A stretch of DNA of 64,000 nucleotides. Origin: an uncultured Anaerolineales bacterium (lineage in GTDB: Bacteria; Chloroflexota; Anaerolineae; Anaerolineales; RBG-16-64-43). Where the stretch lies: NCBI GenBank assembly GCA_964521085.1, contig CAZFPL010000008.1, positions 946-64,945 on the forward strand, read 5' to 3'. The translations under genes and the position numbers were made by a program. Under the pieces are notes generated by a model. The model was given only the letters and a program-made list of their open reading frames with translations. It was not told where the DNA came from and searched no databases. Of the stretch, positions 6,287 through 48,590 are shown piece by piece (within the stretch, counting starts at the first letter, position 1; each line of letters starts with the position of its first letter).

Positions 6287-6393
6287 CTTGCCTCCATGTA
6301 TCCATCGACCGCACTCAAAACTCGGACGATAGATCGGGTTGTACGTTCATCTCGTCTCCTGCATATCGCCATCTAGAAAGCGGCCCAAGGAAT

Positions 6394-7786: not shown

Positions 7787-7791
7787 GTGGT

Positions 7792-9450: not shown

Positions 9451-9952
9451 TTTTCCTCCTATGATTCCTGCCTTGTTCACGGAATGACCGCTTTTCATAC
9501 CGGCGCGGAGTCGGCAGGCGGAACTCCGCTAGCCGGGATAATATGAAATGAATAATGGGATAAGAATTATCGTATTAGTAGAAAGGAAAGTAACTAGATT
9601 GAGAATAGCATAATAAAGACAAGTCGGCTTACATAAAACCTACACAAAACCTCTTAGTGCCGCCGAACTAAAACCAGCCTGGGTTATGGGCGTTGCAGCC
9701 GATTTTTCAGCCGATCCTCCGGCTTTCATTCCATGGCAGGAAAGATCGAAATCGATCTATTATGAAGAGAAAGCGCAGGATGAAGCCGGTCACCCATTGT
9801 TTTGGCTGGTCCGCCAGAAACCGGTGTCAGACCCGGCGATAAGGAACGAGGGAGTTGGGTTCTTATCACCTATACTTGCGCGGATTTCTTTGGTAACCTA
9901 CCCATTGCAGGATGGGGGCCTGCCCAAAGCGCAAGCGACACAGGAGGCATGG

Positions 9953-24493: not shown

Positions 24494-24508
24494 TCAGGAG
24501 AGATCTCC

Positions 24509-28650: not shown

Positions 28651-29784
28651 ATGGAGAAGAAGACGAACGCTCCCGAACCAAACTGGTCCACCCGGATGGC
28701 GGATTCCGTTATGCGGCGCTATTCCGCGGACAAGACGTGGTGGCATTATGAAGAAGGCCTGGTGATGAAAGCCATCGCCGAGACCGCCGCCGCCGCGGGT
28801 GATCCACGGTATGGCCGGTTTGTGCGGGAATGGGTGGATTTGTGGGTGGCCCCCGACGGAAGCATTCGCACGTACCGGCTCGAGGAATTCAATCTCGATC
28901 AAATCTTTCCCGGCCGGCTTCTGTTCTCCATTCACCGGCAGACAGGACAGGAGCGGTACCGCACAGCGATCGAACTCCTGCGGGAACAGCTGCGCCGTCA
29001 GCCGCGCACGAAGGGCGGAGGATTCTGGCACAAGCAAATCTACCCGCACCAGATGTGGCTGGACGGCATCTATATGGCCGATCCGTTTTATGCGGAGTAT
29101 GCATCCGCGTTCGATGAGCCCGCCGCATTCGAAGATATCGCATCCCAGATCGCTTTGATCGAAAGCCAGACTCGGGATCCGAAAACCGGACTGCTGTATC
29201 ACGGCTGGGATGAAAGCCGGAAGCAGCGCTGGGCCAACCCCGAGACTGGTGGTTCTCCCCATTTCTGGGGGCGGGGGATGGGATGGTTCGCCATGGCGGT
29301 CGTCGACGTTCTGGATTTTTTCCCCAGGGATCATGCGGGGCGGGCTGTCCTGGGCGCCATTCTGGAACGTGCCGCCCGGGCGATCGCAAGCGTGCAAGAG
29401 AATGCGACCGGCCTTTGGTATCAAGTTCTCGATCGAGCCGGGAGCCCGGGAAATTACCGGGAATCTTCCGCCTCCGCGATGTTCGCCTACGCGTTCGCGA
29501 AGGGAGTGCGTAAAAAAATTCTGCCCTCGGAATATTTGGCGAACGCAAGGCGGGCTTTCCGCGGGCTTGTGGATCACCGGGTTAAGCGTGATCCGGAAGG
29601 ATTATTTTCGCTGGAAGGAATTTGCGCGGTCGCCGGGTTGGGAGGAGAGCCGTACCGGGATGGATCCTATGAATATTATGTCGAGGAAAAGGCCGTGGCG
29701 AACGATCCGAAGGGTATGGGACCCTTCATCCTGGCGGCTTTGGAGTTGGAGGCTGCGGGAAACGAGAAACTTCCGCAGGAGTAG
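28651..29784 (+). CDS. GH105 unsaturated rhamnogalacturonyl hydrolase (YteR/YesR-like)
   Basis: GGFWHKQIYPHQMWLDGIYMADPF, KTGLLYHGWDESRKQRWANPETGGSPHFWGRGMGW and TGLWYQVLD match YteR. The start was taken at ATG 28651, after the stop of the preceding gene. Confidence 0.88.
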   Translation: MEKKTNAPEPNWSTRMADSVMRRYSADKTWWHYEEGLVMKAIAETAAAAGDPRYGRFVREWVDLWVAPDGSIRTYRLEEFNLDQIFPGRLLFSIHRQTGQERYRTAIELLREQLRRQPRTKGGGFWHKQIYPHQMWLDGIYMADPFYAEYASAFDEPAAFEDIASQIALIESQTRDPKTGLLYHGWDESRKQRWANPETGGSPHFWGRGMGWFAMAVVDVLDFFPRDHAGRAVLGAILERAARAIASVQENATGLWYQVLDRAGSPGNYRESSASAMFAYAFAKGVRKKILPSEYLANARRAFRGLVDHRVKRDPEGLFSLEGICAVAGLGGEPYRDGSYEYYVEEKAVANDPKGMGPFILAALELEAAGNEKLPQE

Positions 29785-29788
29785 CCGG

Positions 29789-31333
29789 ATGCCGTCTGCG
29801 CCCGAAATGAAGCCGCAAAACATCCATTTCAACGTCCGCGAGTACGGCGCTGTGGGCGACGGCCGGACTTTGGAAACCGCGGCATTGCAGGCGGCCATCG
29901 ATGCCTGCCAGAGCCGGGGCGGCGGGATGGTGTTTTTCCCGGCCGGAAAATACCTGACCGGATCACTCTTCCTGCACAATGATGTTCACCTGCATCTCGA
30001 CGCGGGGGCCGTTCTGCTGGGCAGCGAAAATCCGGAGGATTATCCGATCCTCGATCACCGTTGGGAAGGCGCGGAACAGGCGACGTATGCACCGCTTCTC
30101 ACAGGCCAGCATTTAAAAAATATTACAGTCTCCGGCCGCGGGCGGATCGACGGGCAGGGCGGCGTTTGGTGGCGGCGGCATAAGGATAAATCGCTGAAAT
30201 ATCCGCGGCCGCGGTTGATTTCCTTTGCGGATTGCGAGAATGTCCTCATCGAAGGCGTGACGCTGGTCAATTCGCCCAGTTGGACGATCAATCCGGTCCG
30301 CTGTTCCAACCTGACGGTACGCGGGGTGACGATCGATAATCCCTCCGATTCACCGAACACCGACGGGATCAACCCGGATTCCTGCCAGCATGTACGCATC
30401 TCGGACTGCTACGTGAGTGCGGGCGACGATTGCATCACGCTGAAGGCGGGCAGCGAAGACGAACACCCGGACCGGCGGGCTCCCTGCCGCGATATCACCA
30501 TCGTCAATTGCACCCTGGCCCACGGACACGGCGGGGTGGTGATCGGGAGTGAAATGAACGGCGGGGTGCAGAACGTGGTCATTTCGAATTGCATCTTCAC
30601 CGGCACCGACCGCGGTATCCGGCTGAAATCGCGGCGCGGGCGCGGGGGGATCGTCGAGGATATCCGCGCCAGCAACCTGATTATGACGGATGTGCTTTGC
30701 CCGTTCACGATGAACCTGTATTACGGATGCGGGGCCTGGGGCGATCCGGTCGTCTCCGACAAGGGACCGCAGCCGCTGGATGAAGGAACCCCGCGCATCC
30801 GGCGCATCCATCTGAGCCACATCACCGCCCGCGGGGTGAAATACGCCGCCGGCTTTTTTTACGGATTGCCCGAAATGCCGGCGGAAGAAATCTCGCTCAG
30901 CGATATTTCGGTCAGTTTGGCGGCGGACACGGAAGCCGGGTATCCGGAAATGGCCGACGGGCTGGAGCGGATGAAACAGGCTGGATTCTTCATACGCAAT
31001 GTGCGGGGCCTGGCGCTTGAGCATGTGGAAATCAGCGGCCAGACGGGGCCGGCGTTCCGGCTTGTCGATATCGAAGGAGGAACGATCAGCGCCTGCGGAA
31101 CGCCCACGCCGGATCCGCAGGCTCCGGTGATGGATCTGAACAACGTATCCAATGCCCTGGTGAATTCCTGCCGTACGACCCCGGGGACGGGGGTGTTCCT
31201 GCACTTGGGGGGTCCGCAAACCGGAAGAATCACACTGGCCGGAAACGATTTGAATCTGGCGCGCAAAGCGCTGGATCTGGCGGATGATGTGCCGCCCGGC
31301 TCGGTCGAACCGGATCCCCACGGAGGAAAATGA
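29789..31333 (+). CDS. GH28 (exo-)polygalacturonase
   Basis: NVREYGAVGDGRTLETAALQAAIDAC, NSPSWTINP, NTDGINPDS, SAGDDCITLKAG, HGGVVIGSE and RGIRLKS are GH28 catalytic motifs. The start was taken at ATG 29789, since the track ORF overlaps the previous gene. Confidence 0.88.
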   Translation: MPSAPEMKPQNIHFNVREYGAVGDGRTLETAALQAAIDACQSRGGGMVFFPAGKYLTGSLFLHNDVHLHLDAGAVLLGSENPEDYPILDHRWEGAEQATYAPLLTGQHLKNITVSGRGRIDGQGGVWWRRHKDKSLKYPRPRLISFADCENVLIEGVTLVNSPSWTINPVRCSNLTVRGVTIDNPSDSPNTDGINPDSCQHVRISDCYVSAGDDCITLKAGSEDEHPDRRAPCRDITIVNCTLAHGHGGVVIGSEMNGGVQNVVISNCIFTGTDRGIRLKSRRGRGGIVEDIRASNLIMTDVLCPFTMNLYYGCGAWGDPVVSDKGPQPLDEGTPRIRRIHLSHITARGVKYAAGFFYGLPEMPAEEISLSDISVSLAADTEAGYPEMADGLERMKQAGFFIRNVRGLALEHVEISGQTGPAFRLVDIEGGTISACGTPTPDPQAPVMDLNNVSNALVNSCRTTPGTGVFLHLGGPQTGRITLAGNDLNLARKALDLADDVPPGSVEPDPHGGK

Positions 31334-32328
31334 CACTCCCGCCGTTTGGATTGCAGCATCATCTGGATTCTCTGTATGATGACTGCAGGAGGCGATCGAT
31401 TCCCGGCGCGCAGGAAACCATGCGCGAAGAATTCCGGAGATGTCTGGGATTGGCGGGGAGGGAACTCCCGCCGGTGACGGCGGAAGTTTTGCACTCCGTC
31501 GTCCGGGAGACGCATGTCGAAGAAAAAATCCGGCTGACTGCCGGAGAAGGTGTTTCCATCCCGGTCTACGTCTTGGTACCCAAGGCGCGGCCGTCCTTCA
31601 AACCAGTGCTGGTCTTCCCGGGCCATGAGCCCGGGATCCAGGAATGCATCGGAAACTACGCCGATCCGGAGACGGCTCGGACCCACCGGGCAGCGAATGA
31701 CAACTATGCGGAATTCCTGGCCGGTTGCGGGTATTTGGTCGCTGCCGTTGAACAGCGCGGGTTGGGAGAACGCCGGACGGGTCCGGCGACGGAGGAGGAA
31801 ACGCAACGATCCTGCAGAGAACTCTCGTTTGCCTACATGCTGATGGGCCGGACCCTGATGGGCGAACGCTGCTGGGATGGAATGTGCGCCGCCACCTACC
31901 TGCTATCCCGATCGGATGTGATTCCGGGCGGGTTTGGATGCACCGGTCACTCGGGCGGAGGGGCGACGGCGCTGTGGCTCGCGGTACTGGACGAGCGGAT
32001 CCGCGCGACGGTGGTTTCCGGATATTTCTGTTCGTTCCGGGATTCGATCCTTTCGATCGACCATTGCGAATGCAACTACATTCCGGGTATTCTAAATTTG
32101 GCGGAGATGGGCGGGCTTGCGGCATTGCTGGCGCCCCGGCCTTTCTGCGCCGTGAACGGTGAACTGGATCCGATTTTTCCGATTGACGGAGCCGTCCGTG
32201 AGTTCGAGACGGTCCGGCAGGCGTACGCACGGCACGGCGCGGGGGAAGCCTGCAAGCTGGAAGTCCATCCCGGCGGGCACATGTACCAAAACGAGGCAAG
32301 CCGGTCCTGGTTGGCGCGCTGGTTGTAG
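31330..32328 (+). CDS. Alpha/beta-hydrolase, putative carbohydrate esterase
   Basis: ATGA overlap with the GH28 stop. The nucleophile elbow reads GHSGGG. The dienelactone hydrolase/acetyl-esterase-like layout and its pectin-locus context support the call. Confidence 0.6.
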   Translation: MTLPPFGLQHHLDSLYDDCRRRSIPGAQETMREEFRRCLGLAGRELPPVTAEVLHSVVRETHVEEKIRLTAGEGVSIPVYVLVPKARPSFKPVLVFPGHEPGIQECIGNYADPETARTHRAANDNYAEFLAGCGYLVAAVEQRGLGERRTGPATEEETQRSCRELSFAYMLMGRTLMGERCWDGMCAATYLLSRSDVIPGGFGCTGHSGGGATALWLAVLDERIRATVVSGYFCSFRDSILSIDHCECNYIPGILNLAEMGGLAALLAPRPFCAVNGELDPIFPIDGAVREFETVRQAYARHGAGEACKLEVHPGGHMYQNEASRSWLARWL

Positions 32329-32349
32329 AAAATTCTTTGGAGTGGGAAT

Positions 32350-33381
32350 ATGAAAATCGTAACCTTCGGTGAAATCATGCTGCGGCTTTCACCGCCGGGA
32401 TTCCAACGCTTCCGGCAGGCGCGTTCCTTCGAGGTTGTTTATGGAGGCGGCGAATCCAATGTGGCGGTCTCCCTCGCGGATTTCGGCGATACGGCCGAGT
32501 TCGTCACCCGCCTTCCGCAAAACGATTTAGGCGAAGCATGCCTGGCCGCGTTGCGCGCCCGCGGCGTGTTGACCCAGCATGTGGTGCGGGGCGGCGACAG
32601 GCTTGGAATCTATTTCCTTGAAAACGGTGCGGCGCAGCGCGGCAGCAAGGTCATCTATGACCGGGCCGGCTCCAGCTTCGCCGGCATCCAGCCCGGAATG
32701 GTCGATTGGCCGGCGGTGCTTGCGGATGCCGATTGGTTCCATTGGACCGGGATCACCCCCGCGGTCTCGCAGTCCGCGGCGGAGACATGCCTGGAAGCGG
32801 TGAAAGCCGCCAAGCGTCTGGGAAAAACCGTATCGTGCGATCTGAACTACCGCGCGAAACTTTGGAAGTGGGGAAAACAGGCGGGCGAAGTGATGGCGGA
32901 GTTGGTCTCGCAGTGCGATATGGCTGTTGGAAACGAGGAGGATGCCGACAAGGTCTTCGGTATCCGGGCTCCGGAATCCAATGTCGCCGCGGGCAAAGTG
33001 GAAGCGGAGAAATACCGGTTTGTCTGCGAGGCATTGGCCAAACGTTTCCCCGGCCTGCAAACGATCGCCATCACCCTGCGCGGATCGCTGTCAGCCAGTC
33101 ATAACACCTGGTCGGGCGTGCTGTGGACAAAGAACGGCTTTCACACCGCTCCCGTGTACGACATCATCCCGGTGGTGGACCGAGTAGGGGCCGGTGACGC
33201 ATTCAACGGCGGTTTGATCCACGGGCTGCGGGCTTACCCGGGCGATCCGCAGAAGGCTTTGCGTTTCGCGGTCGCCGCATCCTGCCTGAAACACAGCGTC
33301 CCGGGCGATGCCAACGTTGTCACGGCTGCGGAAGTCGAGCAACTGATGGAAGGCGACACCTCCGGACGGGTATCCCGGTAA
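32350..33381 (+). CDS. kdgK: 2-dehydro-3-deoxygluconokinase (PfkB family)
   Basis: MKIVTFGEIMLRLSPPG...YGGGESNVAVSLADFG at the N-terminus and VDRVGAGDAFNGGLIHGL at the C-terminus. Confidence 0.85.
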   Translation: MKIVTFGEIMLRLSPPGFQRFRQARSFEVVYGGGESNVAVSLADFGDTAEFVTRLPQNDLGEACLAALRARGVLTQHVVRGGDRLGIYFLENGAAQRGSKVIYDRAGSSFAGIQPGMVDWPAVLADADWFHWTGITPAVSQSAAETCLEAVKAAKRLGKTVSCDLNYRAKLWKWGKQAGEVMAELVSQCDMAVGNEEDADKVFGIRAPESNVAAGKVEAEKYRFVCEALAKRFPGLQTIAITLRGSLSASHNTWSGVLWTKNGFHTAPVYDIIPVVDRVGAGDAFNGGLIHGLRAYPGDPQKALRFAVAASCLKHSVPGDANVVTAAEVEQLMEGDTSGRVSR

Positions 33382-33386
33382 TCGAA

Positions 33387-34301
33387 ATGCGATTGGTGAC
33401 GTTTTCGCGGAACGATCAGGTGCGAATCGGAGTGCAATTGACGCGCTCCGGCCGGAATTTCATACTGGATCTGAACCGGGTGCAGCCTGCATTGCCGGAA
33501 AAGATGAACGCGTTTTTGGCTGCCGGCGAGCCGGCGCAGGCAATCGCCCGGCGGGCGATGAAGGAGGCCAAAGAGAAGGATCTTCTACCCGAGGAGGATG
33601 TGCGGCTTCTGGCGCCTGTTCCGAATCCGGGCAAGCTTATTTGTCTCGGGCACAATTACCACGATCACATGGGCAAAGGCCGCAGCCAGCCGCCGGAATT
33701 TCCGACCTTCTTTTGCAAAACCGGCAATACGGTCATCGGGCCGGGATCTCCGATCGTGATCCCGCCCGCAACCAAACAGGCGGATTTCGAGGCCGAGTTG
33801 GCGGTGGTAATCGGGCGGCGAACGCGCCGGATATCGGAACGGGAAGCCCGGGCATCCGTTGCGGGATACACCATCTTCAACGACATAAGCGCCCGGGATT
33901 ATCAGAAGCGCACCAGCCAATGGATGATCGGAAAGTCGTTCGACACGTTCGGCCCGATGGGGCCCGTGCTGGTGACGGCGGATGAAATACCCGATCCGCA
34001 CCGCCTGGACTTGACTCTGAACCTGAATGGAGTTCAGCGGCAGAAAACCAACACCCGCCGGATGATCTTTACCATCCCGTTCCTGATCGCATATCTCAGC
34101 GCGGTCATGACACTGGATCCGGGGGATGTGATCGCCACCGGAACCCCGGCGCGCACACCGGCGCCGCCGGGAGCGCCCGAATTCCTGCAACCGGGGGACA
34201 TGGTCCGGATTACGATCGAGAGCATCGGCGAGTTGGCCAATCCCATCATCGCGGAGGAGACGGTTTCTCCGGAGGAACGGCCGCAAGCGCGGAAAGGATG
34301 A
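33387..34301 (+). CDS. Fumarylacetoacetate hydrolase (FAH) family protein
   Basis: KLICLGHNYHDH, PTFFCK, DFEAELAVVIGR, NDISARD, GKSFDTFGPMGP and GDVIATGTP are FAH-fold motifs. Confidence 0.85.
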   Translation: MRLVTFSRNDQVRIGVQLTRSGRNFILDLNRVQPALPEKMNAFLAAGEPAQAIARRAMKEAKEKDLLPEEDVRLLAPVPNPGKLICLGHNYHDHMGKGRSQPPEFPTFFCKTGNTVIGPGSPIVIPPATKQADFEAELAVVIGRRTRRISEREARASVAGYTIFNDISARDYQKRTSQWMIGKSFDTFGPMGPVLVTADEIPDPHRLDLTLNLNGVQRQKTNTRRMIFTIPFLIAYLSAVMTLDPGDVIATGTPARTPAPPGAPEFLQPGDMVRITIESIGELANPIIAEETVSPEERPQARKG

Positions 34302-34305
34302 TCCT

Positions 34306-35328
34306 ATGGCGCGATTTCAACGTTTGGAAGTGACGGGCAGCATTCTCGAAACCGGTTTGCTGCCGCTGTTCTATAACGGCGATCTGAACACCGCCATCGA
34401 GTCGGTTGCGGCCTGCGCCCGGGGCGGCGCTCGGGCCGTGGAATTCACCAACCGCGGCGAGGCCGCGTATTCCGTGTTCGGCGAATTGGTGCGGCATTTC
34501 GCGAAGGCGGATCCTTCCATCATCCTGGGAGTCGGATCGGTGATGGATGCGCCCACGGCCGCGCTGTACCTGGCCGCCGGGGCGAACTTTATCGTCGGAC
34601 CCAGCCTGAATCCCGAGATCTCGCGCCTGTGCAACCGGCGGAAAATCCTCTACCTCCCGGGGTGCGCCACCGAAACCGAGATTGCCACCGCGGAGGAACT
34701 GGGCGCCGAAATCTGCAAAATATTTCCGGGGGATGCCGCCGGCGGGCCGAAATTCATCAGCGCGGTCATGGCTCCCTGCCCGTGGCACCGGCTGCTTCCG
34801 ACGGGCGGAGTCGACGCCACCGAACCGAACGTCACCGAGTGGATCAAAGCCGGAGCGGCGGCGCTGGGCATGGGCAGCAAGCTGGTCACCGCAGCGCTGG
34901 TTTCAGCGCACGATTTCGACGGATTAGCCGCGAAGACCGCAGAATGCATCGGCTGGATCCAAAAAGCCCGTGGAGCGCCGGCCTTCCTGGGGATCGAGCA
35001 TATCGGTTTGTATCCGCACCGGACGGATGCAAAGACTCTCAACGATTGGTATGCCAAGACGTTCGGATGGGAGAGCAAGGAAGGCGGCAGTTCCTTCTTC
35101 CTCTCCGCCGCCGGGCCGGGCCGCATGGAAGTGATGAAGGCTTCCAAGGATGCTCCGATGCACATTGCAATTCGCGTCTCGAACTTCGAGGAAGCCGTGG
35201 CCGCCCTGAAGGCGAAGGGGATTGGAATCAAGGATCCCGTCCTTAAGCCGGAATCCAAATCCGCCTACCTCGAGACCGCCGATCCGGATGGAAATCTCGT
35301 GCACCTGTTGTGGACTCCGAAAAAATGA
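34306..35328 (+). CDS. eda: KDPG/KHG aldolase (Eda) fused to a C-terminal VOC (glyoxalase-fold) domain
   Basis: The N-terminal ~215 aa read GARAVEFTNR...GVGSV...FIVGP...LPGCATETE...KIFPG...LLPTGGV. The C-terminal ~120 aa read IEHIGLYP...HIAIRVSNFEEAVAALKAKGI...YLETADPDGNLVHLL. Confidence 0.8.
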   Translation: MARFQRLEVTGSILETGLLPLFYNGDLNTAIESVAACARGGARAVEFTNRGEAAYSVFGELVRHFAKADPSIILGVGSVMDAPTAALYLAAGANFIVGPSLNPEISRLCNRRKILYLPGCATETEIATAEELGAEICKIFPGDAAGGPKFISAVMAPCPWHRLLPTGGVDATEPNVTEWIKAGAAALGMGSKLVTAALVSAHDFDGLAAKTAECIGWIQKARGAPAFLGIEHIGLYPHRTDAKTLNDWYAKTFGWESKEGGSSFFLSAAGPGRMEVMKASKDAPMHIAIRVSNFEEAVAALKAKGIGIKDPVLKPESKSAYLETADPDGNLVHLLWTPKK

Positions 35329-35441
35329 ACTACCGCGCGGCCAGCCGCGCGCTATCAAGGAATGCAACTCCCATTTTTTCACGACGCACGCAACGGGAAA
35401 TTACACATCCCGCGAAGCGGGATAAAAGAAAGGCGGAAGCG

Positions 35442-36257
35442 ATGTCGTATTTTGAAGCTGTTCCCACGAAAGATGCCCTGAACCGCGTCCCGGGCAATCC
35501 GTTCAAGCTGCTCGACCTGCAATTGCTGATCCTTCCCGATGGCGGGAAGCATTCAGCCGCAACCGGCAGCCGCGAAGTGCTGATGGTGATCCTCGGCGGT
35601 ATAGCGACCGTCGCCGCAGGTTTAAAAACCTTCACCGGCATCGGCGGACGGCCCAATCCTTTTTCCGGGAAGCCGCATTCGGTGTATCTTCCCTGCGGGA
35701 CGGATTACACCGTCACCGCCGCGGGACGGTTGGAAGCGGTGTTGGTCAGTGCGCCGAGTGAACTTAAAACTGATTCGTATGTAATCGGGCCTGAAAAAAT
35801 CACCACCGGAGTCTGGGGAGCGGCCAATTTCAGCCGCAACTTCCATCAGATTCTCACCCTGGCCGGGCAGCCGGATCTCCCCGCGCAGCGACTCATTGTC
35901 GGCGAGACGTATACGCCTTCAGGCAACTGGAGCACGTTCCCGCCGCACAAACATGAAAAGGATGATCTTCCGCGTGAAGCCTTCCACGAGGAGCTGTACT
36001 TCTTCAAGGTCAGTCCGGGCGACGGATTCGGATTGACGCGCTACTACAATGGCGAGGTGGACACCGGCTACGTGGTGCGCGATAACACCATCCTCATGGC
36101 GCCCAACGGATTTCACACCGTTGTCAGCGCGCCGGGATACACCACGTATTATTTATGGGCGCTGGCGGGCAATCACCGCACCCAGGCCACCGCCGACGAT
36201 CCCGCCTTGGCGTGGGTCGGCCGCACCGTGCCGATGCTCAAGGCGCTTGGACACTAG
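35442..36257 (+). CDS. IolB/KduI-superfamily cupin ketol-isomerase (5-deoxy-glucuronate isomerase-like)
   Basis: VGETYTPSGNWSTFPPHKHEKDD...EELYFFK is the IolB signature. The start was taken at ATG 35442 (MSYFEAV). It lies adjacent to kduD. Confidence 0.75.
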   Translation: MSYFEAVPTKDALNRVPGNPFKLLDLQLLILPDGGKHSAATGSREVLMVILGGIATVAAGLKTFTGIGGRPNPFSGKPHSVYLPCGTDYTVTAAGRLEAVLVSAPSELKTDSYVIGPEKITTGVWGAANFSRNFHQILTLAGQPDLPAQRLIVGETYTPSGNWSTFPPHKHEKDDLPREAFHEELYFFKVSPGDGFGLTRYYNGEVDTGYVVRDNTILMAPNGFHTVVSAPGYTTYYLWALAGNHRTQATADDPALAWVGRTVPMLKALGH

Positions 36258-36283
36258 GAACGACCGACCATTGGAGAAATCCC

Positions 36284-37048
36284 ATGATTCTTGATGCGTT
36301 TCGATTGGATGGAAAAGTCGCGCTGGTAACCGGCGCGCGACAGGGATTGGGGCAGGCGCTCGCGCTGGCGCTTGCGGAAGCGGGCGCGGATATCGCCGCG
36401 CTGGATAAGGGCGATGTGACGGAAACCGACGCCAGGGTTGCCGGGTTGAAGCGGCGATTCCTTCCCATCCCATGTGACTTGCGGGAATCCGCGCCGGCGG
36501 ATCTCCAGCGGGTGGTGGAACGGGTGGCCGCCGAACTCGGCCGCCTCGATATTCTGGTCAACAACGCCGGGATCATCCGCCGCACGCCGGCGGTGGATTT
36601 CAGCGAGGCCGATTGGGATGACGTGCTGCAGGTCAATCTCAAAGCGGTGTTCTTTCTATCCCAGGCCGCGGCGCGGATCATGTTGGCCCGCGGCGGCGGG
36701 AAGATCATCAACATCGCCTCCATGCTTTCGTTTCAGGGCGGGATTCTCATCCCGTCCTACACCGCCTCCAAGAGCGGCGTGGCCGGGATTACGCGCGCGC
36801 TGGCCAACGAGTGGGCCGCACGCGGGATCAACGTCAACGCCATTGCGCCCGGATACATGGCCACCGACAACACTGCCGCCCTCCGCGCGGACGCCAAGCG
36901 ATCGGCGTCCATCCTCGACCGAATCCCGGTCGGGCGCTGGGGAACCCCCGACGACCTGAAAGGGGCGGCTGTCTTTCTCGCATCCTCCGCCTCCGATTAC
37001 CTGCATGGCGCGATCATTCCGGTGGATGGCGGTTGGTTGACGCGGTGA
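36284..37048 (+). CDS. kduD: 2-dehydro-3-deoxy-D-gluconate 5-dehydrogenase (SDR)
   Basis: GKVALVTGARQGLGQA, NNAGI, IINIASMLSFQGG, YTASKSGVAG and PGYMATDNT. The start was taken at ATG 36284. Confidence 0.8.
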   Translation: MILDAFRLDGKVALVTGARQGLGQALALALAEAGADIAALDKGDVTETDARVAGLKRRFLPIPCDLRESAPADLQRVVERVAAELGRLDILVNNAGIIRRTPAVDFSEADWDDVLQVNLKAVFFLSQAAARIMLARGGGKIINIASMLSFQGGILIPSYTASKSGVAGITRALANEWAARGINVNAIAPGYMATDNTAALRADAKRSASILDRIPVGRWGTPDDLKGAAVFLASSASDYLHGAIIPVDGGWLTR

Positions 37049-37082
37049 AAGGCCGTAGGATCTCGGAAGGGAGCAGCAGCCT

Positions 37083-38564
37083 ATGACGACGGCGTTCCAG
37101 GCTCTCGATCTGCGAATGGATCCGCGTTCTTTGGTAAGTACGCCGGATGCAGAATACGGTCTATACGAAACCGGAAGCAAAAAAAGACTTGCGGTGCTTG
37201 CCGACTCGGGCTCGGGCGTTTTGAAAACCTTTGAAGGTGAATGCTCGGAGCATCAAGATCGGACTCTATTGCTTGGACCGATAAGCCCGCAGAACGCCGC
37301 CGCGCTTCGTGCTCAACTGGCATGGTTGCGGCCGCGCCTTTGGGGAATGCGCACTTCCGCCGGGTTGGGTGACCGCCTGGGACTGGCCACACCCGGGCAT
37401 GTGCGCGCGATGCGCGCGGCGGGCGGATCGATCGGACCGATCTTCGCCCAGCAATCCATTCGGGAAATGCTGCGCACCGGGCGTTCGCCGCAGCAGGTGA
37501 TGGACGATGCAACCTGGGGCGTCTTCCAGGAAGGCTGGCGCGAAGGGGTGGGCGCGGACGCGGACCATTTGAAAACCACCGCGGATATAGATGGCAGTGT
37601 CGCGGCGGGTTTCACCTTCTTCACAATCGATCCCGGCGAATTCGTCGACCGCGCCGCCGAAACGGCCGACCTGGGTCAGTTGCGCGAGCGGGTGGGAAGC
37701 CAGCCGCCCGACGCCCAGCCGCGCGCGACGGGCCTGCTCGGTAGATCCATCGACATCGAAGGCAGAACCCTGCACTTCGACGAACCGGCCCTGCTCAAGG
37801 CGGTGGTGAAATACGGCCGGGCGGTGGAGCATGTCGCAACCATGAGCCGCCACCTGGCACGCGCCGCGGCGGGGCGAGTGTGCGAGCTGGAAGTGTCGGT
37901 GGATGAAACCGAACAGCCGACGTCGGCGGTGGAACACGTTTACATCGCCAGCGAGCTGCGCCGGCTGGGGGTGGAGTGGGTAAGCCTGGCTCCGCGCTTC
38001 ATCGGCCGGTTTGAAAAGGGGGTGGATTACATCGGCGATCTCGCGGCATTCGAAGCGGACTTGGCGGTGCATGCCGCCATCGCCCGGCAGTTCGGACCGT
38101 ACAAACTCAGCTTGCACTCCGGCTCGGATAAATTCAGCATTTACCCGGCCGCGATGCGCCAAACGCGGGGATTGGTGCACCTGAAGACGGCCGGCACCAG
38201 TTACCTCGAGGCATTGCGGACCGTCGCTTCGATCGAACCAATTTTCTTTCTCGAGATCTACGCTTTCGCGCGCGAGCGGTATGAGGTCGACCGGGCCAGC
38301 TATCACGTATCGGCGCAGCTGGGGCGTGCGCCGTTTCCCGCGGCCGTCACCGACGTTCCCGGGTTGTTGAATCAGTTCGACGCGCGGGAGATACTGCACG
38401 TGACCTTCGGTTCCGTGCTCACGGCGACCGCGCCGTCCGGCGGTTTGCGTTTTTATGAACATCTGAGAGAATTATTGTCCATGAATTCAGATCTGTATGC
38501 CGGCAATTTGGAGGGGCACTTCCTCCGGCACTTGAAACCGTTCGCTTCGAATGGAATCCGGTAA
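37083..38564 (+). CDS. uxaE: Tagaturonate/fructuronate epimerase family protein (UxaE-like)
   Basis: SAGLGDRLGLATPGH, FAQQSIRE and GADADHLK resemble the UxaE family as I remember it, and the size (~490 aa) and hexuronate context fit. This rests on memory, not on an alignment. Confidence 0.6.
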   Translation: MTTAFQALDLRMDPRSLVSTPDAEYGLYETGSKKRLAVLADSGSGVLKTFEGECSEHQDRTLLLGPISPQNAAALRAQLAWLRPRLWGMRTSAGLGDRLGLATPGHVRAMRAAGGSIGPIFAQQSIREMLRTGRSPQQVMDDATWGVFQEGWREGVGADADHLKTTADIDGSVAAGFTFFTIDPGEFVDRAAETADLGQLRERVGSQPPDAQPRATGLLGRSIDIEGRTLHFDEPALLKAVVKYGRAVEHVATMSRHLARAAAGRVCELEVSVDETEQPTSAVEHVYIASELRRLGVEWVSLAPRFIGRFEKGVDYIGDLAAFEADLAVHAAIARQFGPYKLSLHSGSDKFSIYPAAMRQTRGLVHLKTAGTSYLEALRTVASIEPIFFLEIYAFARERYEVDRASYHVSAQLGRAPFPAAVTDVPGLLNQFDAREILHVTFGSVLTATAPSGGLRFYEHLRELLSMNSDLYAGNLEGHFLRHLKPFASNGIR

Positions 38565-38694
38565 TCCATGAACCGGTCCGCCCTGCCTTCCGCCGAAGGT
38601 TTTTCCGGCCGGACGGCCGTCGCCACCGGAAGAAACGTGCCGATGGAGAACGGGTATTCGGGGTTGGGCGGCGTATAAGATCGAGAAAATCAAC

Positions 38695-39987
38695 ATGATC
38701 CAAGAGCAGGCAACGGCCGCCCCCGGCCAAACCCTAACCGAAGATACAATCCGGCAGACGCTGAACCGCGCCCTGGGAGGGCGGTTTCGCGGCCGGAAAG
38801 TCCTGATTCTGATCCCCGATCATACGCGATCCTTGCCGCTTCCATTCCTCTTCCGTACATTGGTGGAGATCCTGCGCGGCGCACATACGCTGGATTTCCT
38901 CGTCGCCCTCGGAACGCATCCGGTGCCGAGCGAGGAAGGCCTGTGGCGCTTGGTCGGCATCACTGCGGCCCAACGGCGCACCGTGTACCGGCGGGTAGGC
39001 CTGTTCCACCATGCCTGGAGCGATCCTTCCGCGCTGACTTCCCTGGGATGGATCTCGCAAGGACTCATTCGGCAATTTGCAGGGAAGTGCTGGCATCCTT
39101 CGCTCGGCGGCGATACAGAGGTGCATGTCAACCGGAAATTGCTGGAATACGACCACATCCTGATTGCCGGCCCGACTACTCCACACGAGGTGGTCGGTTT
39201 CTCCGGAGGGGCGAAGTACATCATCCCGGGAGTTTCGGGCCCGCAGATGATCAACACCACGCATTGGCTGGGGGCGCTTTCCGGAGTGGTGGAAACCATC
39301 GGCGTGAAGGACACACCGGCGCGGAAAATGGTGCATGCCGCGGCATCCAAACTCCCGACGCCCGTCACGCTGCTGGGGATGGTCACCGAGGATCACGACC
39401 TGGCCGGGATCTTTATCGGGGATGCAACCTCCGCCTGGAGCGCCGCGGCCGACCTTTCGGCTCAGCGGCATATCCACTGGTGCGAGAAGCCCTTCCGGCG
39501 GGTGCTTTCCTGCCCATTGCCGATGTATGACGAGTTGTGGACGGCCGCCAAGGCGATGTATAAACTGGAACCCGTCGTCGCCGCAGGCGGAGAAGTCGTG
39601 ATCTACGCGCCGCACCTCGACACCATCAGCCGCACGCACGGGAGGTTCATCTACGAAGTCGGGTATCATATCCTGCCGTATATCCTCGAGAACTGGGACC
39701 GGTTGCGGGATCAGCCGCTGGCCGTGCTGGCGCACAGCTCACACGTCCGCGGATCCGGGCGAATGGAGAACGGGGTGGAAAAACCCAGCGTGCGGGTCAC
39801 CCTGGCCAGCCGGATCCCTGCGGAGGATTGCGCGCGGTTGAATTTGGGGTACATGAATCCGGATGCCGTTCATCCGGAAGAGTGGAAGGATCGTGAGGAG
39901 GAGGGCGTCCTCTCTGTACCGAAAGCGGGGGAGATTCTCTATCGGCTGAAGGGTTCGCGGGAAGCCGAGGCGGGGGAAACGGGATGA
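38695..39987 (+). CDS. LarA-family (nickel-pincer nucleotide-dependent) 2-hydroxyacid racemase/epimerase homolog
   Basis: LILIPDHTRS, ALGTHP and PHEVVGFSGGAKYIIPGVSGPQMINTTH. The H-x9-K-x15-H spacing equals the His174/Lys184/His200 spacing of L. plantarum LarA as I recall it. Confidence 0.75.
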   Translation: MIQEQATAAPGQTLTEDTIRQTLNRALGGRFRGRKVLILIPDHTRSLPLPFLFRTLVEILRGAHTLDFLVALGTHPVPSEEGLWRLVGITAAQRRTVYRRVGLFHHAWSDPSALTSLGWISQGLIRQFAGKCWHPSLGGDTEVHVNRKLLEYDHILIAGPTTPHEVVGFSGGAKYIIPGVSGPQMINTTHWLGALSGVVETIGVKDTPARKMVHAAASKLPTPVTLLGMVTEDHDLAGIFIGDATSAWSAAADLSAQRHIHWCEKPFRRVLSCPLPMYDELWTAAKAMYKLEPVVAAGGEVVIYAPHLDTISRTHGRFIYEVGYHILPYILENWDRLRDQPLAVLAHSSHVRGSGRMENGVEKPSVRVTLASRIPAEDCARLNLGYMNPDAVHPEEWKDREEEGVLSVPKAGEILYRLKGSREAEAGETG

Positions 39988-40490
39988 AAACCACCGGTTT
40001 GATCGTTATGGGCGTTGCGGGCTGCGGGAAAACCACCGTTGGAAAAGCGCTGGCGGAACGACTCGGCTGGGATTTTTTCGATGCCGATGGATTTCATCCG
40101 CCGGCGAATGTGGCCAAGATGGCGGCGGGGATCCCGCTTGACGACGAAGACCGCGCGCCCTGGCTTGCCGCACTGCATGACCTAATGGCCCGGACGCTTC
40201 GCGAAGGCCGCCATCCGGTTCTGGCTTGTTCCGCCCTCAAGGAGTGCTATCGAAAAACACTCCTCGACGGCAACGACGGGATCCGGGTGGTGCATCTACG
40301 GGGCGACTACGACCTCATCCTATCGCGCATGCACGATCGAACGGATCATTACATGAAACCCGGCATGCTGCGCAGCCAGTTCGACGCGCTGGAGGAACCC
40401 GCGGGGGCATTGACCGCGGATATCGCCCGGCCGGTGACGGAAATCGTCGACGACATTCTGTCCGCTATTCCGAAGGAAGGAAGAGATTAG
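39984..40490 (+). CDS. gntK: Gluconokinase (GntK, P-loop)
   Basis: ATGA overlap with the LarA-like stop. IVMGVAGCGKTTVGKALA...FFDADGFHPPANVAKM..GIPLDDEDRAPWL is the classical thermoresistant-gluconokinase pattern. Confidence 0.88.
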   Translation: MKTTGLIVMGVAGCGKTTVGKALAERLGWDFFDADGFHPPANVAKMAAGIPLDDEDRAPWLAALHDLMARTLREGRHPVLACSALKECYRKTLLDGNDGIRVVHLRGDYDLILSRMHDRTDHYMKPGMLRSQFDALEEPAGALTADIARPVTEIVDDILSAIPKEGRD

Positions 40491-40590
40491 CGTTCATGGG
40501 AATCGATCGTATCGGTTGAGGTAAAAACCCCGGAATTTTCCCGCCACGGAACGGATTGCGGAAACAGGCGGATGATAGAAAGGCATCGGT

Positions 40591-42054
40591 ATGAGTCAGG
40601 CGGATATCGGATTAATCGGATTGGCCGTGATGGGCCAAAACTTGGTGCTTAACATGAACGACCACGGATTCACAGTGGCCGTTTACAACCGCACCACGTC
40701 GAAGGTGGATGAGTTCCTGCGGGAAGGCGCCAAGGAAACGCGTGTCGTCGGCACCCACTCACTTGAGGAATTGGTCAGCGCGCTTCAAAAACCGCGCCGG
40801 GTGATGATGATGGTGAAAGCCGGCGCGCCGGTCGACGACCTCATCGAACGCCTGCTTCCGCTGATGGAAAAGGGCGATATCCTCATCGACGGCGGCAACT
40901 CGAACTTCGCCGACACCATCCGCCGCACCGCCTACGTGGAATCGAAAGGACTGTGGTTCCTCGGGGTGGGTATTTCAGGCGGCGAGGATGGGGCGCGCTA
41001 CGGCCCATCGATCATGCCCGGCGGATCGCCCGCAGCCTGGGCCGCCGTCAAGCCGATCTTCCAAGCCATCGCCGCCAAGGTTCCGCGGCTGGGGGAAGGG
41101 GAGGACCCCTGCTGCGACTGGGTGGGGGAGAACGGCGCCGGCCACTACGTAAAGATGGTGCACAACGGGATCGAATACGGAGATATGCAGCTGGTCAGCG
41201 AAGCGTATCACCTGATGAAAGAAGGGCTGGGGCTCTCGACCGAGGCGATGGGCGAGGTGTTCGCGGGATGGAACAAGGGCAAATTAAATTCCTACCTGAT
41301 CGAGATCACGCGGGATATCCTGGCCTTCAAGGACGAAGACGGCCAGCCGCTTGCGGATAAAGTCTTGGATGTGGCCGGACAAAAAGGGACCGGCCGATGG
41401 GCGGGTATCTCCGCTCTCGAATTGGGCATCCCGCTGACGATGATCACGGAAGCGGTCTCCGCCCGATCACTCTCGATGCTCAAGGAAGAGCGCCTGGCGG
41501 CGGCCAAACTGCTCCACGGGCCGAATCCACGCCTTCCCAACCCGACCAAATACTTTGTGGCGGATTTGGGGGAGGCGGTCTTCGCATCCAAAATCATCTC
41601 CTACACCCAGGGTTTTATGCTGATGCGCGCCGCCGCGCGGGAATATCACTGGGACCTCCATTACGGCGGGATCGCCATGATGTGGCGCGGCGGATGCATC
41701 ATCCGCTCAAGCTTCCTGCAAAAAATAAATTCCGCCTTTAATCGGAAGCCGGATTTAACCAACCTCCTCCTGGATCCATATTTCGAAGTCCAGGTCGAAA
41801 CCGCCCAGTCCGCCTGGAGGCGGGTGGTTGCCGCCGCAGCCCAGCAGGGCATCCCGATGCCCGCCATGTCGAGCGCACTCACATTTTTCGACAGCTATCG
41901 CTGCGGATGGCTTCCCGCCAACCTGGTGCAGGCTCAGCGGGATTATTTCGGCGCCCATACATATGAGCGGGTCGACCGGCCGCGCGGGGAATTCTTTCAC
42001 ACCGATTGGACGGGGCACGGCGGGAAGGTGACCTCCTCCACGTATTCGGCGTAG
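40591..42054 (+). CDS. gnd: 6-phosphogluconate dehydrogenase, decarboxylating
   Basis: IGLIGLAVMGQNLVLN, GGNSNF, GISGGEDGAR, GHYVKMVHNGIEYGDMQ and IIRS..L. Confidence 0.93.
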   Translation: MSQADIGLIGLAVMGQNLVLNMNDHGFTVAVYNRTTSKVDEFLREGAKETRVVGTHSLEELVSALQKPRRVMMMVKAGAPVDDLIERLLPLMEKGDILIDGGNSNFADTIRRTAYVESKGLWFLGVGISGGEDGARYGPSIMPGGSPAAWAAVKPIFQAIAAKVPRLGEGEDPCCDWVGENGAGHYVKMVHNGIEYGDMQLVSEAYHLMKEGLGLSTEAMGEVFAGWNKGKLNSYLIEITRDILAFKDEDGQPLADKVLDVAGQKGTGRWAGISALELGIPLTMITEAVSARSLSMLKEERLAAAKLLHGPNPRLPNPTKYFVADLGEAVFASKIISYTQGFMLMRAAAREYHWDLHYGGIAMMWRGGCIIRSSFLQKINSAFNRKPDLTNLLLDPYFEVQVETAQSAWRRVVAAAAQQGIPMPAMSSALTFFDSYRCGWLPANLVQAQRDYFGAHTYERVDRPRGEFFHTDWTGHGGKVTSSTYSA

Positions 42055-46776: not shown

Positions 46777-47799
46777 ATGACTCTCATTGAACTCAAGGAT
46801 CTGGCCAAGCATTTTAAAATCCTCAACCGCCACGAGGGGTTGAAGGGCGCCGTGCGCGATTTGTTCTCCGGCGACTATCGAACCGTAAAGGCGGTGGATG
46901 GAATCTCCTTCAACATCGACCCGGGCGAAATCGTCGGCTACATCGGCCCGAACGGCGCGGGAAAATCGACCACGATCAAGATGATGACCGGCATCCTCAA
47001 ACCCAGCGGCGGAACGCTGTTGGTCAACGGACTCGTCCCGTACGACAACCGCATGCGCCAGGCGATGATCATGGGCGTGGTGTTCGGGCAGCGGACGCAG
47101 CTGTGGTGGGACCTGCCGGTGATCGAATCCTTTAAAATCCTGAAAGAGATCTACAAAGTGGATCAGAAAATGTTCGATGAACACCTGGGGATGTTCAACG
47201 AACTGGTCGGGTTGAAGGCGCTGTATTCCCAGCAGGCGCGGACTCTTTCCCTCGGGCAGCGGATGCTGTGCGACATCACCGCTTCCTTCCTGCATAATCC
47301 GCAGGTCGTGTTCCTCGACGAACCGACCATCGGCCTCGACGTTTCGATCAAAGCCAAGATCCGTTCGCTGATCCTGGAGTTGAACCGCACCCGCAATACC
47401 ACCATCATCCTTACCACCCATGACTTGGGCGACGTCGAAGCGTTGTGCCGGCGGATCATCATTATCGACAAGGGCAAAAACCTCTACGACGGCGAAATCA
47501 AGAAGGTCACTGCGCTGTTCGGGGCGTATCGGACGCTTAAGCTGCAGATCAAGGATTATTCCGACGCCATGCTGACCACCTTGCAGGAGCGCCTCACCGG
47601 CCGATTTGGAGCAGAGAATGGCACCACTATTTGTCAGACCGAGGATTTCTGGACCGACGTTACCATCGACCAGGCGCGGACCGCTCTGGCCGACGTACTG
47701 GCGTTTGTCATGTCGAATTTCCCGGTGACGGACGTCAGGATCGTCGAGATCACGATGGAGAATGTGGTCCGTAAAGTCTACGACGGAGCGCTGCAATGA
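46777..47799 (+). CDS. ABC transporter ATP-binding protein (ABC-2 type system)
   Basis: Walker A GPNGAGKSTT, signature LSLGQRM and Walker B VVFLDEPTIGLD, plus a C-terminal extra domain. Confidence 0.88.
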   Translation: MTLIELKDLAKHFKILNRHEGLKGAVRDLFSGDYRTVKAVDGISFNIDPGEIVGYIGPNGAGKSTTIKMMTGILKPSGGTLLVNGLVPYDNRMRQAMIMGVVFGQRTQLWWDLPVIESFKILKEIYKVDQKMFDEHLGMFNELVGLKALYSQQARTLSLGQRMLCDITASFLHNPQVVFLDEPTIGLDVSIKAKIRSLILELNRTRNTTIILTTHDLGDVEALCRRIIIIDKGKNLYDGEIKKVTALFGAYRTLKLQIKDYSDAMLTTLQERLTGRFGAENGTTICQTEDFWTDVTIDQARTALADVLAFVMSNFPVTDVRIVEITMENVVRKVYDGALQ

Positions 47800-48587
47800 G
47801 AGGGTATCTTGCATTTATGCGCGGCGCGATTATGGTGGGGGTGGTTTACCGCCTGGGATTCCTGTTCACGATCCTGGGCAACATCATCTATATGATCATC
47901 GCGTACTTTCTCTGGCGCAGCATTTACGCCGGCCGGGAAACCCTCAACGGGCTGACCTTCGACCAGGCGCTGCTGTACGTTGCGCTCGGCAGCACGACCT
48001 TCATCCTGCTTAAAACCTACACGGATTGGGGCATGGCGGGAGAGATCCGCGACGGGACGATCTCCGTCTACCTCACCAAGCCGATCGATTACCAGCTCTA
48101 CAACCTTTTCACCACCATCGGATTCGCGTCGACGAGCGTCGTCACCGTCACGCTTCCGACCGTGATCATGCTGCTCTTCGTGTTCCGGATCCACTTCGCC
48201 CTCGGCGCGGGATACCTGTTCTTCCCGATCAGCCTGCTGCTGGCGTTCATCATCAATTTCAACATGGACTACGCCGTCGGCCTGAGCGCGTTTTACACCG
48301 AATCCATCTGGGGCATCAGCACCACCAAGGAGATCACCGTATCCGTGCTTTCGGGGGCGCTCCTGCCCCTGCAATTCTTTCCGGGGGCGATCCAGCAGGT
48401 CCTGATGGTCCTTCCTTTCCAGGCCATGTTTTTTACACCGCTGATGATGGTGACCAAACCGGATCAGGACGCGGGGGTGTTCCTGCGGATGCTGGCCGTA
48501 CAGGCCCTGTGGGCGGCGGTCATGTATGTCGCCAGCCGGCTGCTCTACGACCAGGCGGTTAAAGTGCTGCGCGTGGCGGGAGGGTAG
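47796..48587 (+). CDS. ABC-2 family transporter permease
   Basis: ATGA overlap with the ATPase stop. About 6 TM helices. Confidence 0.75.
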   Translation: MRGYLAFMRGAIMVGVVYRLGFLFTILGNIIYMIIAYFLWRSIYAGRETLNGLTFDQALLYVALGSTTFILLKTYTDWGMAGEIRDGTISVYLTKPIDYQLYNLFTTIGFASTSVVTVTLPTVIMLLFVFRIHFALGAGYLFFPISLLLAFIINFNMDYAVGLSAFYTESIWGISTTKEITVSVLSGALLPLQFFPGAIQQVLMVLPFQAMFFTPLMMVTKPDQDAGVFLRMLAVQALWAAVMYVASRLLYDQAVKVLRVAGG

Positions 48588-48590
48588 GGC

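Follow-up and report, generated by a model that had tools for sequence, protein, structure and literature searches.

What does a LarA homologue do at the end of a block of pectin genes in an uncultured Anaerolineales bacterium? The question is raised by the 64-kb stretch of DNA analysed here (the window), in which an earlier, sequence-only reading had seen a possible shunt from mannonate via gluconate into the pentose phosphate pathway.

Gene order at the pectin locus

The uxaE, gntE, gntK and gnd genes are encoded together in the window, in this order and as intact full-length ORFs, with gaps of 130, -4 and 100 bp. The overlap between the gntE stop and the gntK start that had been read from the letters is indeed there (ATGA at 39984-39987), gnd follows, and the upstream gene described as UxaE-like matches the UxaE family over its full length (Table 1). 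The gntE-gntK-gnd module would form the tail of a 13-gene pectin operon (28651-42054). Co-transcription of this co-directional block is presumed; a scan for promoters and terminators returned counts no different from chance, and hence no information on the operon limits.

Table 1. Genes of the co-directional pectin block, in window coordinates
Feature	Position	Strand	Basis
GH88 unsaturated uronyl hydrolase, first gene of the block	28651..29784	+	Pfam GH88 on 99.9% identical contig L014; frame intact in window
GH28 polygalacturonase-like hydrolase	29789..31333	+	PF00295, 159 bits; start per L014 gene call
Alpha/beta-hydrolase, putative esterase	31330..32328	+	PF12715, weak match
PfkB-family kinase, KdgK-like (2-keto-3-deoxygluconate kinase)	32350..33381	+	PF00294; top NCBIfam matches are KDG-kinase models
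FAH-family hydrolase	33387..34301	+	PF01557, 245 bits
KDPG/KHG aldolase (Eda) with C-terminal glyoxalase-like domain	34306..35328	+	NF005499, 293 bits (cut-off 275); PF00903 at residues 241-333
KduI/IolB-family isomerase	35442..36257	+	PF04962, 227 bits; start per L014
KduD, 2-dehydro-3-deoxy-D-gluconate 5-dehydrogenase, SDR	36284..37048	+	TIGR01832, 387 bits (cut-off 339); top PDB match 4Z9Y, E 1.9e-95
UxaE tagaturonate/fructuronate epimerase	37083..38564	+	PF16257, 458 bits, full length
SDR gene remnant, positional counterpart of uxaD (fructuronate reductase)	38568..38681	+	blastn vs L018; 37 codons
GntE-type LarA homologue, predicted NPN-dependent D-mannonate/D-gluconate 2-epimerase, 430 aa	38695..39987	+	4NAR, E 1.7e-59; conserved residues; group 19 placement
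GntK/IdnK-type P-loop gluconokinase, 168 aa	39984..40490	+	TIGR01313, 167 bits (cut-off 113.75)
Gnd, decarboxylating 6-phosphogluconate dehydrogenase, 487 aa	40591..42054	+	TIGR00873, 737 bits (cut-off 427)

Family and subgroup of the LarA homologue

Judged from its sequence, the 430-aa protein belongs to the LarA superfamily of nickel-cofactor enzymes, and the resemblance goes far beyond what chance would give. A profile search detects Lar_N (PF09861) with 77.5 bits (cut-off 23.3; E 1e-21), and the protein matches PDB entry 4NAR over its full length and, more weakly, 2YJG (E 4e-9) and 5HUQ. In view of the strength of the first of these matches (Table 1), the fold can be regarded as settled. 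The LarA hallmarks that had been noticed in the sequence are confirmed: DHTR at residues 42-45, GTH at 73-75, and H164-x9-K174-x15-H190, with a spacing identical to that in LarA. Alignment to Lactobacillus plantarum LarA, which the sequence-only reading had proposed as a check on His108, His174, Lys184 and His200, shows that seven of seven catalytic and cofactor-binding residues are conserved. The catalytic residues D72, H108, H174 and K298 of LarA correspond to D42, H75, H164 and K286, and the NPN-binding residues R75, K184 (the tether) and H200 (the Ni ligand) to R45, K174 and H190.

The lactate racemase LarA (5HUQ) thus has the same fold family and the same catalytic and NPN-binding residues, but the similarity is low (E only 5e-8), and the substrate pocket differs. 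At the positions of LarA F175, F176, W358 and T359, the window protein has the selectivity signature E165, V166, A346 and H347. Identity as a lactate racemase (NF033504, 73 bits against an equivalog cut-off of 460) or as a malate racemase (NF052593, 94 bits against 500) was rejected on the scores and on the pocket residues. The best NCBIfam match, NPN_18_hexonate for the putative hexonate epimerases of group 18, was also rejected, since its score of 146 bits lies far below the cut-off of 500 and the identity to group 18 sequences is about 27%. Relatives in the clade are labelled 'lactate racemase' in the databases, which, in view of the low similarity to LarA and the replaced pocket residues, is misleading.

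GntEs usually carry E, V, A and H at the selectivity positions (PMC11770544, PMC7583248). As a membership test, we used E, V/S, A and H at these positions together with a tryptophan in helix alpha-11; the four residues of the window protein and W282, located in this helix, agree with GntE. A neighbour-joining tree of 15 proteins belonging to groups 18, 19 and 20, which is a distance tree without support values, places the window protein with the characterised GntEs, at the base of group 19 of Desguin et al. This group includes GntE1 (LarAH19) of Corynebacterium glutamicum, which epimerises D-mannonate in vitro, and proteins such as Trad_0660, Plabr_2258, Rcas_3031 and Npun_F5335. They share with the window protein the residues D R H H E V K H and the motifs W-T-A-K and L-A-(H)-S-T/S-H. 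In blastp, the window protein scores 374-332 bits against group 19, 206 bits against GntE2 and at most 102 bits against group 18, and its identity is 46-48% to non-actinobacterial group 19 members, 36% to GntE1 and 33-37% to GntE2.

GntE2 of Thermotoga maritima (LarAH20, TM0442, PDB 4NAR) is the best structural homologue, with 37% identity in the alignment. Orthology to this group 20 protein was nevertheless dropped in favour of group 19. The signature residues are S156, G286 and N348 in group 20 and V166, A285 and A343 in the window protein. The modest identity to the well-behaved GntE2 is a point against the GntE assignment.

The sequence-derived evidence indicates that the window protein is probably an enzyme of the GntE type, an already characterised kind of D-mannonate/D-gluconate 2-epimerase, which would feed 6-phosphogluconate formation together with GntK and Gnd. 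[quoted passage not shown] Within this clade, thousands of proteins from Chloroflexota are labelled 'lactate racemase' or 'DUF2088' in public databases and would be better named GntE-type hexonate 2-epimerases.

Conserved neighbourhood, substrate and proposed route

Relatives retain the link of gntE to gntK and gnd, as the sequence-only reading would predict. In 19 related loci from Chloroflexota and Calditrichia, the core consists of an SDR gene, gntE and gnd, with a hexonate kinase of either the P-loop GntK or the PfkB type, often preceded by uxaC-uxaE (upstream of gntE in nine loci). An orthologous SDR gene lies directly upstream of gntE in 18 of the 19, and gnd is found less than 2 kb from gntE in 14 of the 16 distinct relatives with contigs that extend far enough. 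The 4-bp overlap of gntE and gntK recurs in L018, L019 and L020. The Pfam annotation of loci L020, L022 and L023 contains no mannonate dehydratase. The published context of group 19, three genes to each side, comprises LarB, LarE, LarC, UxaC, COG0246 and SDR, but neither gluconokinase nor Gnd. In the window clade, in contrast, the neighbours of gntE are gnd and gntK (or a PfkB kinase) instead of larBCE. As had been stated before, the scanned ORFs of the window contain no LarB, LarC or LarE domain, and larB, larC and larE are also absent from the 10 kb on either side of gntE in L020-L023. A nickel transporter was found neither in the window nor in these four 10-kb neighbourhoods. Both absences count against the GntE reading.

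In vitro epimerisation of D-mannonate has been recorded for GntE1, GntE2 and LarAH15 (Desguin et al. 2020, PMC7583248), but the characterised GntEs have high Km values for free mannonate (9-120 mM). The Km of GntE1, the nearest characterised enzyme within group 19, is 120 mM and led its authors to doubt that mannonate is the native substrate, to leave the mannonate role of group 19 open and to propose another substrate for the group (PMC7583248). The window enzyme, as a group 19 protein, might therefore epimerise a different sugar acid, such as another hexonate or an aldarate like glucarate/mannarate, and the deletion of the mannonate-making reductase gene beside gntE in the window lineage (see below) would fit. 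This is unlikely, however, in view of the gnd and hexonate kinase genes that flank gntE in nearly every locus of the clade, the uxaC-uxaE-SDR genes in many of them, and the lack of aldarate genes seen nearby. The context thus favours a GntE product that becomes 6-phosphogluconate. Conversely, the conserved SDR-gntE-gnd-kinase core provides independent genomic support for the view that group 19 LarA homologues feed mannonate into 6-phosphogluconate.

If mannonate is the substrate, the acid/base pair would be H75 and H164, which would invert D-mannonate at C2 and so yield D-gluconate. The P-loop gluconokinase, whose gene is translationally coupled to gntE, would convert gluconate to 6-phosphogluconate, and Gnd would decarboxylate the latter to ribulose-5-phosphate with a gain of NADPH. 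Flux presumably runs from mannonate toward the pentose phosphates. The sequence-only reading regarded this route as a bypass of the KDG branch, which overstates the case. Since kdgK, eda, kduI and kduD are in the same operon, the module would run parallel to the classical KduI/KduD/KdgK/Eda branch for unsaturated uronates. The data suggest that uncultured Anaerolineales may direct some of the pectin-derived galacturonate to the pentose phosphate pathway, with a gain of NADPH, beside the KDG branch.

A connection between hexuronate catabolism and the pentose phosphate pathway had been thought undescribed. However, as summarised in three papers that cite their work (PMC3750489, PMC6978723, PMC7583248), Rodionova et al. 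2012 proposed the sequence mannonate, gluconate, 6-phosphogluconate, ribulose-5-phosphate for the gnd-uxaR-uxaE-uxaD-gntE-gntK operon of T. maritima, and in vitro measurements of how GntE acts on D-mannonate followed in 2020 (Desguin 2020, PMC7583248). The route is thus already known, proposed in 2012 and biochemically supported in 2020; the window is an added member, and the current understanding of the pathway and of the enzyme family is unchanged. The T. maritima operon, in full aldH-pelB-gnd-uxaR-uxaE-uxaD-gntE-gntK, is induced on pectin and, like the window, combines GH28, uxaE, gntE, a gluconate kinase and gnd in one unit with the same proposed route. It differs in its kinase, which is of the COG1070/FGGY type (the COG1070 entry we take to be TM0443) instead of a P-loop GntK. 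Moreover, a UxaR regulator gene lies between the T. maritima genes and none between the window genes, and uxaD is intact in Thermotoga, whereas its positional counterpart in the window is deleted.

The steps could also occur in reverse order, with 'GntK' phosphorylating D-mannonate and the LarA homologue epimerising 6-phosphomannonate to 6-phosphogluconate. [quoted passage not shown] 2020). That route, like the one proposed for the window, leads from mannonate to 6-phosphogluconate; it connects the isomerase pathway with the pentose phosphates and is redox-neutral. The high Km values of GntEs for free mannonate would be understandable in such a scheme, and the tight coupling of gntE and gntK is compatible with either order. 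Nevertheless, we consider phosphorylation before epimerisation improbable: the three characterised enzymes turn over unphosphorylated mannonate, the score of the window kinase exceeds the threshold of the GntK/IdnK gluconokinase subfamily, and mannonate is reportedly not a substrate of E. coli GntK. LarA homologues are not known to have been tested on phosphorylated substrates, and the L. suebicus 6-phosphomannonate activity has not been tied to any of them. It is more doubtful still that the GntE and GntK proteins of the whole clade act in this order, with the LarA homologue as the 6-phosphomannonate 2-epimerase of the L. suebicus galacturonate route. If phosphorylation did come first, this would be a so far unreported case of an NPN enzyme acting on a phosphorylated sugar acid.

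Loss of the reductase gene and the supply of mannonate

For the preferred order, epimerisation before phosphorylation, the origin of mannonate has to be considered. The sequence-only reading had derived mannonate, via fructuronate, from the UxaE-like gene just upstream, but in the window the mannonate-forming step is lacking beside gntE. The 130 bp gap between uxaE and gntE, which that reading had passed over, is not a plain spacer, but contains the remnant of a deleted SDR gene, according to blastn against L018. Of a 277-aa protein, about 21 codons at the N-terminus and about 10 at the C-terminus are left, in a reading frame of 37 codons in total, after an in-frame internal deletion of about 0.7 kb. 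The remnant translates as MNRSALPSAEGFSGRTAVATGRNVPMENGYSGLGGV, compared to MSHPSSPTSKEFSGTVAVVTGGGG...DGGYSAFGGV in L001. All 19 related loci have an intact orthologous SDR; the UxaD-like gene beside gntE is reduced to a remnant in the window lineage only. In addition, tblastn did not detect a UxaC homologue in the 64-kb window. An assembly artefact behind the missing SDR and uxaC genes was ruled out: four independent assemblies contain the identical remnant spacer, and L014 agrees with the window to 99.93% along 13.3 kb. The operon in its present form thus lacks a complete path from galacturonate to mannonate, and mannonate must be supplied from elsewhere.

These losses raise the question of whether the module is a relic, either decaying or inactive, with a GntE deprived of its role by the loss of uxaC and the SDR gene, and possibly also of cofactor synthesis. 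Genes appear to have been lost stepwise, as uxaC is missing in both the window and L018, and the SDR gene only in the window lineage; larBCE are absent from the window; and GntE shows a slight excess of lineage-specific substitutions (38-45 unique changes against 25-29 in relative-rate tests, p 0.03-0.27, uncorrected, a weak and inconsistent signal). We nevertheless regard a relic as very improbable, since all four genes from uxaE to gnd are intact, every catalytic residue is retained, the rate of change of GntK in the window lineage is lower rather than higher, the same arrangement is found at 99.9% identity in four samples, and genes for the reductase and the isomerase could lie in other parts of the genome. 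The uxaC gene may lie outside the operon, as it does in T. maritima. As an improbable alternative, the lineage may, after the loss of the dedicated reductase, make mannonate with the KduD-like SDR of the operon.

Identity of GntE and the published route

The best solved-structure match of the window GntE, over its full length, is 4NAR (E 1.7e-59), the T. maritima TM0442 protein termed GntE2 or LarAH20 (PMC7583248), whereas L. plantarum LarA (5HUQ) is matched with an E value of only 5e-8. The motifs noticed in the sequence-only reading, DHTR (residues 42-45), GTH (73-75) and H164-x9-K174-x15-H190, are indeed present. In the alignment with 4NAR and LarA, the catalytic residues D42, H75, H164 and K286 (LarA D72, H108, H174 and K298) and the cofactor binders R45, K174 and H190 (LarA R75, K184 and H200) are all kept, among them the expected counterparts of His108, His174, Lys184 and His200. 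The selectivity positions are E165, V166, A346 and H347, with W282 in helix alpha-11; according to a published rule, GntEs usually show E, V, A and H there (PMC11770544; also PMC7583248).

Lactate racemase (NCBIfam 73 bits, cut-off 460), malate racemase (94 bits, cut-off 500) and a group-18 "putative hexonate epimerase" (146 bits, cut-off 500; about 27% identity to group 18) were rejected as identities. In a neighbour-joining tree with sequences of Desguin groups 18, 19 and 20, taken from the supplementary table of that study, the protein lies at the base of group 19, the group of C. glutamicum GntE1. Its identity is 46-48% with group-19 proteins of Rubinisphaera, Truepera, Nostoc and Roseiflexus, 36% with GntE1, and 33% (blastp) to 37% (local alignment) with GntE2. 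In view of this branching and these identities, it belongs by sequence to the GntE1 type, rather than to the Thermotoga type.

The earlier claim that a link between hexuronate catabolism and pentose-phosphate metabolism had not been described is wrong, because the route was proposed in 2012 and the activity has since been measured. In the proposal of Rodionova et al. 2012 (Environ Microbiol 14:2920), as recounted by Valk et al. 2020 (PMC6978723), Rodionov et al. 2013 (PMC3750489) and Desguin et al. 2020 (PMC7583248), mannonate is turned into gluconate by the epimerase TM0442 (gntE), and gluconate reaches pentose-phosphate metabolism via gluconate kinase and 6-phosphogluconate dehydrogenase. 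The T. maritima unit, aldH-pelB-gnd-uxaR-uxaE-uxaD-gntE-gntK, is under the control of UxaR, and its expression rises 2- to 5-fold on pectin (PMC3750489). D-mannonate is epimerised by GntE2 loaded with the nickel cofactor NPN (Km 17 mM, kcat 197 s-1) and by GntE1 (Km 120 mM) (Desguin et al. 2020, PMC7583248). LarAH15 from Phytophthora was added as a third GntE in 2024. Enzyme family and metabolic link are thus both published, and the window gene is a further, so far uncharacterised member. The additions made here are the assignment to group 19, a conserved SDR-gntE-gnd-kinase core among Chloroflexota, and the loss by deletion of the reductase gene in the window lineage.

The functional guess of the sequence-only reading was itself sound. 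The window GntE probably epimerises D-mannonate at C2 to D-gluconate in an NPN-dependent reaction. Proton-coupled hydride transfer, as in LarA, would invert C2, and GntK, then Gnd, would act afterwards. A different sugar-acid substrate, already suspected for group 19 (Desguin et al. 2020, PMC7583248), appears unlikely.

Pectin operon and gene context in relatives

The gntE gene belongs to a block of co-directional genes with gaps of at most 113 bp, in the order GH88, GH28, alpha/beta-hydrolase, KdgK, FAH-family hydrolase, Eda, KduI, KduD, UxaE, SDR remnant, GntE, GntK and Gnd, followed by two esterases. The UxaE-like gene ahead of gntE and the consecutive gntE, gntK and gnd genes are as first described, with the gntE stop overlapping the gntK start (ATGA at 39984-39987). 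Co-transcription is inferred from spacing; counts in a promoter and terminator scan are at chance level. As KdgK, Eda, KduI and KduD are encoded in the same operon, the GntE branch stands beside the KDG branch and, contrary to the first suggestion, does not bypass it.

Features of the window and of related Chloroflexota/Calditrichia loci (L numbers)
Feature	Position	Strand	Details
Four consecutive SH3_3 proteins	1540-9498	-	428-1002 aa
Hybrid regulator	19476-23078		1200 aa
Two ABC sugar permease genes	23465-25387
Pectin operon	28651-42054		13 genes
eda	34306-35328		KDPG/KHG aldolase; C-terminal glyoxalase/VOC-like domain, residues ~240-334
KduI/IolB family	35442-36257		NCBIfam IolB 207.7 bits (cut-off 205)
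uxaE	37083-38564		PF16257 458 bits, full length
SDR remnant	38568-38681		114-bp ORF
gntE	38695-39987	+	430 aa; Pfam Lar_N 77.5 bits (cut-off 23.3)
gntK	39984-40490	+	168 aa; GntK/IdnK gluconokinase TIGR01313 167 bits (cut-off 113.75)
gnd	40591-42054	+	487 aa; Gnd TIGR00873 737 bits
Two ABC-2 membrane-protein genes, opposite-strand 439-aa ORF	47796-49388, 50430-51749		third-position GC 0.82-0.84
PfkB kinase after gnd	L005:13564-14646, L006:5033-6118, L021:12924-14006, L022:13796-14857, L023:13822-14904
~175-aa ORF between gntE and gnd	L005:11261-11815, L007:11261-11791, L023:11306-11824
Split gntE	L013:2143-3418		overlapping ORFs 2143-2850, 2795-3418

L018 and L020 have the aldolase-VOC fusion too; the aldolase of L022 (222 aa) lacks it. 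The KduI/IolB-family protein only just exceeds the model for IolB (5-deoxy-glucuronate isomerase); its position adjoining kduD suggests KduI, and the automatic IolB name may be wrong.

Among named relatives, the nearest to this uncultured Anaerolineales bacterium are MAGs of Anaerolineales and Chloroflexota. In the 19 related loci compared (48-78% identical at the protein level), the SDR gene always has an ortholog; these orthologs share 62-92% identity, and in 18 loci the gene lies immediately upstream of gntE. Of the 16 distinct relatives with a long enough contig, 14 have gnd at most 2 kb after gntE; in L012 it lies upstream instead. uxaC-uxaE precedes the SDR gene in 9/19 loci, and among the loci annotated with Pfam none has a called mannonate dehydratase. 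A kinase is found near gntE in every locus. The gntE/gntK pairing holds in closer relatives (L001-L004, L009, L018/L019, probably L020), where a P-loop gntK separates gntE from gnd, but not in more distant ones (L005-L007, L013, L021-L023), which have a PfkB-family kinase after gnd. The kinase adjoining gntE in Thermotoga is of FGGY type (COG1070), so that three unrelated kinase families have been recruited to the same position, which argues that the GntE product needs phosphorylation en route to Gnd. A kinase-first order, with GntE acting on 6-phosphomannonate, is also unlikely, slightly more so than another substrate; it draws on the 6-phosphomannonate 2-epimerase activity found in L. suebicus extracts (Valk et al. 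2020, PMC6978723). The published group-19 context table lists LarB, LarE, LarC, UxaC, COG0246 and SDR genes, without gluconokinase or Gnd, so that the gene neighbourhoods of the Chloroflexota clade are additional evidence on what the group does physiologically.

The PfkB kinases of loci without P-loop gntK are 75-83% identical to each other and 34% to the window KdgK, and seem to have replaced the hexonate kinase without being orthologous to it. The ~175-aa ORF conserved in distant Chloroflexota has no Pfam match, P-loop motif or window homologue. The apparently split gntE of L013, downstream of which gnd was not detected, could be a copy with a frameshift, or the MAG may contain a sequencing error there.

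Missing uxaC and deleted SDR gene

In L001-L003, L011 and L020, uxaC lies between kduD and uxaE. In the window these are 34 bp apart without uxaC, which is likewise absent in the closest relative, L018, and tblastn finds no UxaC homologue anywhere in the 64-kb window. Of the gene for a 277-aa protein, the SDR remnant retains ~21 codons at the 5' end, with the Rossmann-motif start FSGRTAVATG, and ~10 at the 3' end (GYSGLGGV*). By blastn, the window aligns with both ends of the L018 SDR gene, and ~0.7 kb between them is missing. The deletion is real, because four independent assemblies (ERR4334730, ERR4334733, ERR4334734 and ERR3804376) share an identical 130-bp spacer; one of them is 99.93% identical to the window along 13.3 kb.

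UxaD of Thermotoga is an SDR that acts as a mannonate oxidoreductase, and the intact SDR of relatives holds the position of its gene. The best PDB match of the intact SDR is 4WUV, presumably deposited as a putative D-mannonate oxidoreductase. With the adjacent SDR lost, mannonate in the window lineage must come from a reductase encoded elsewhere. One might speculate that the operon KduD is a candidate replacement by sequence, as it matches TM0441/1VL8 with 170 bits, compared to 102 bits for the intact SDR.

That GntE itself is a relic without function or cofactor is the least probable reading. uxaE, gntE, gntK and gnd are intact; in a relative-rate test, GntE shows no more than a slight surplus of changes, and GntK shows none. 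Genes for larB, larC, larE and a nickel transporter were not found in the 64-kb window (for larBCE as first noted, by domain scans of ORFs there) or within 10 kb of gntE in four annotated relatives.

Other features of the window

The ABC-2 genes and the 439-aa ORF, which has no Pfam match, stand out in third-position GC from the rest of the window (~0.65-0.75). The four SH3_3 proteins each carry this domain at the C-terminal end, and one also has beta-helix/NosD repeats; these are probably carbohydrate-active proteins that are secreted or exposed on the cell surface. The 1200-aa protein just upstream of the sugar permease genes is a hybrid one-protein two-component regulator, in which a LacI-type periplasmic-binding-like sugar sensor is joined to HisKA/HATPase, receiver and AraC HTH domains.
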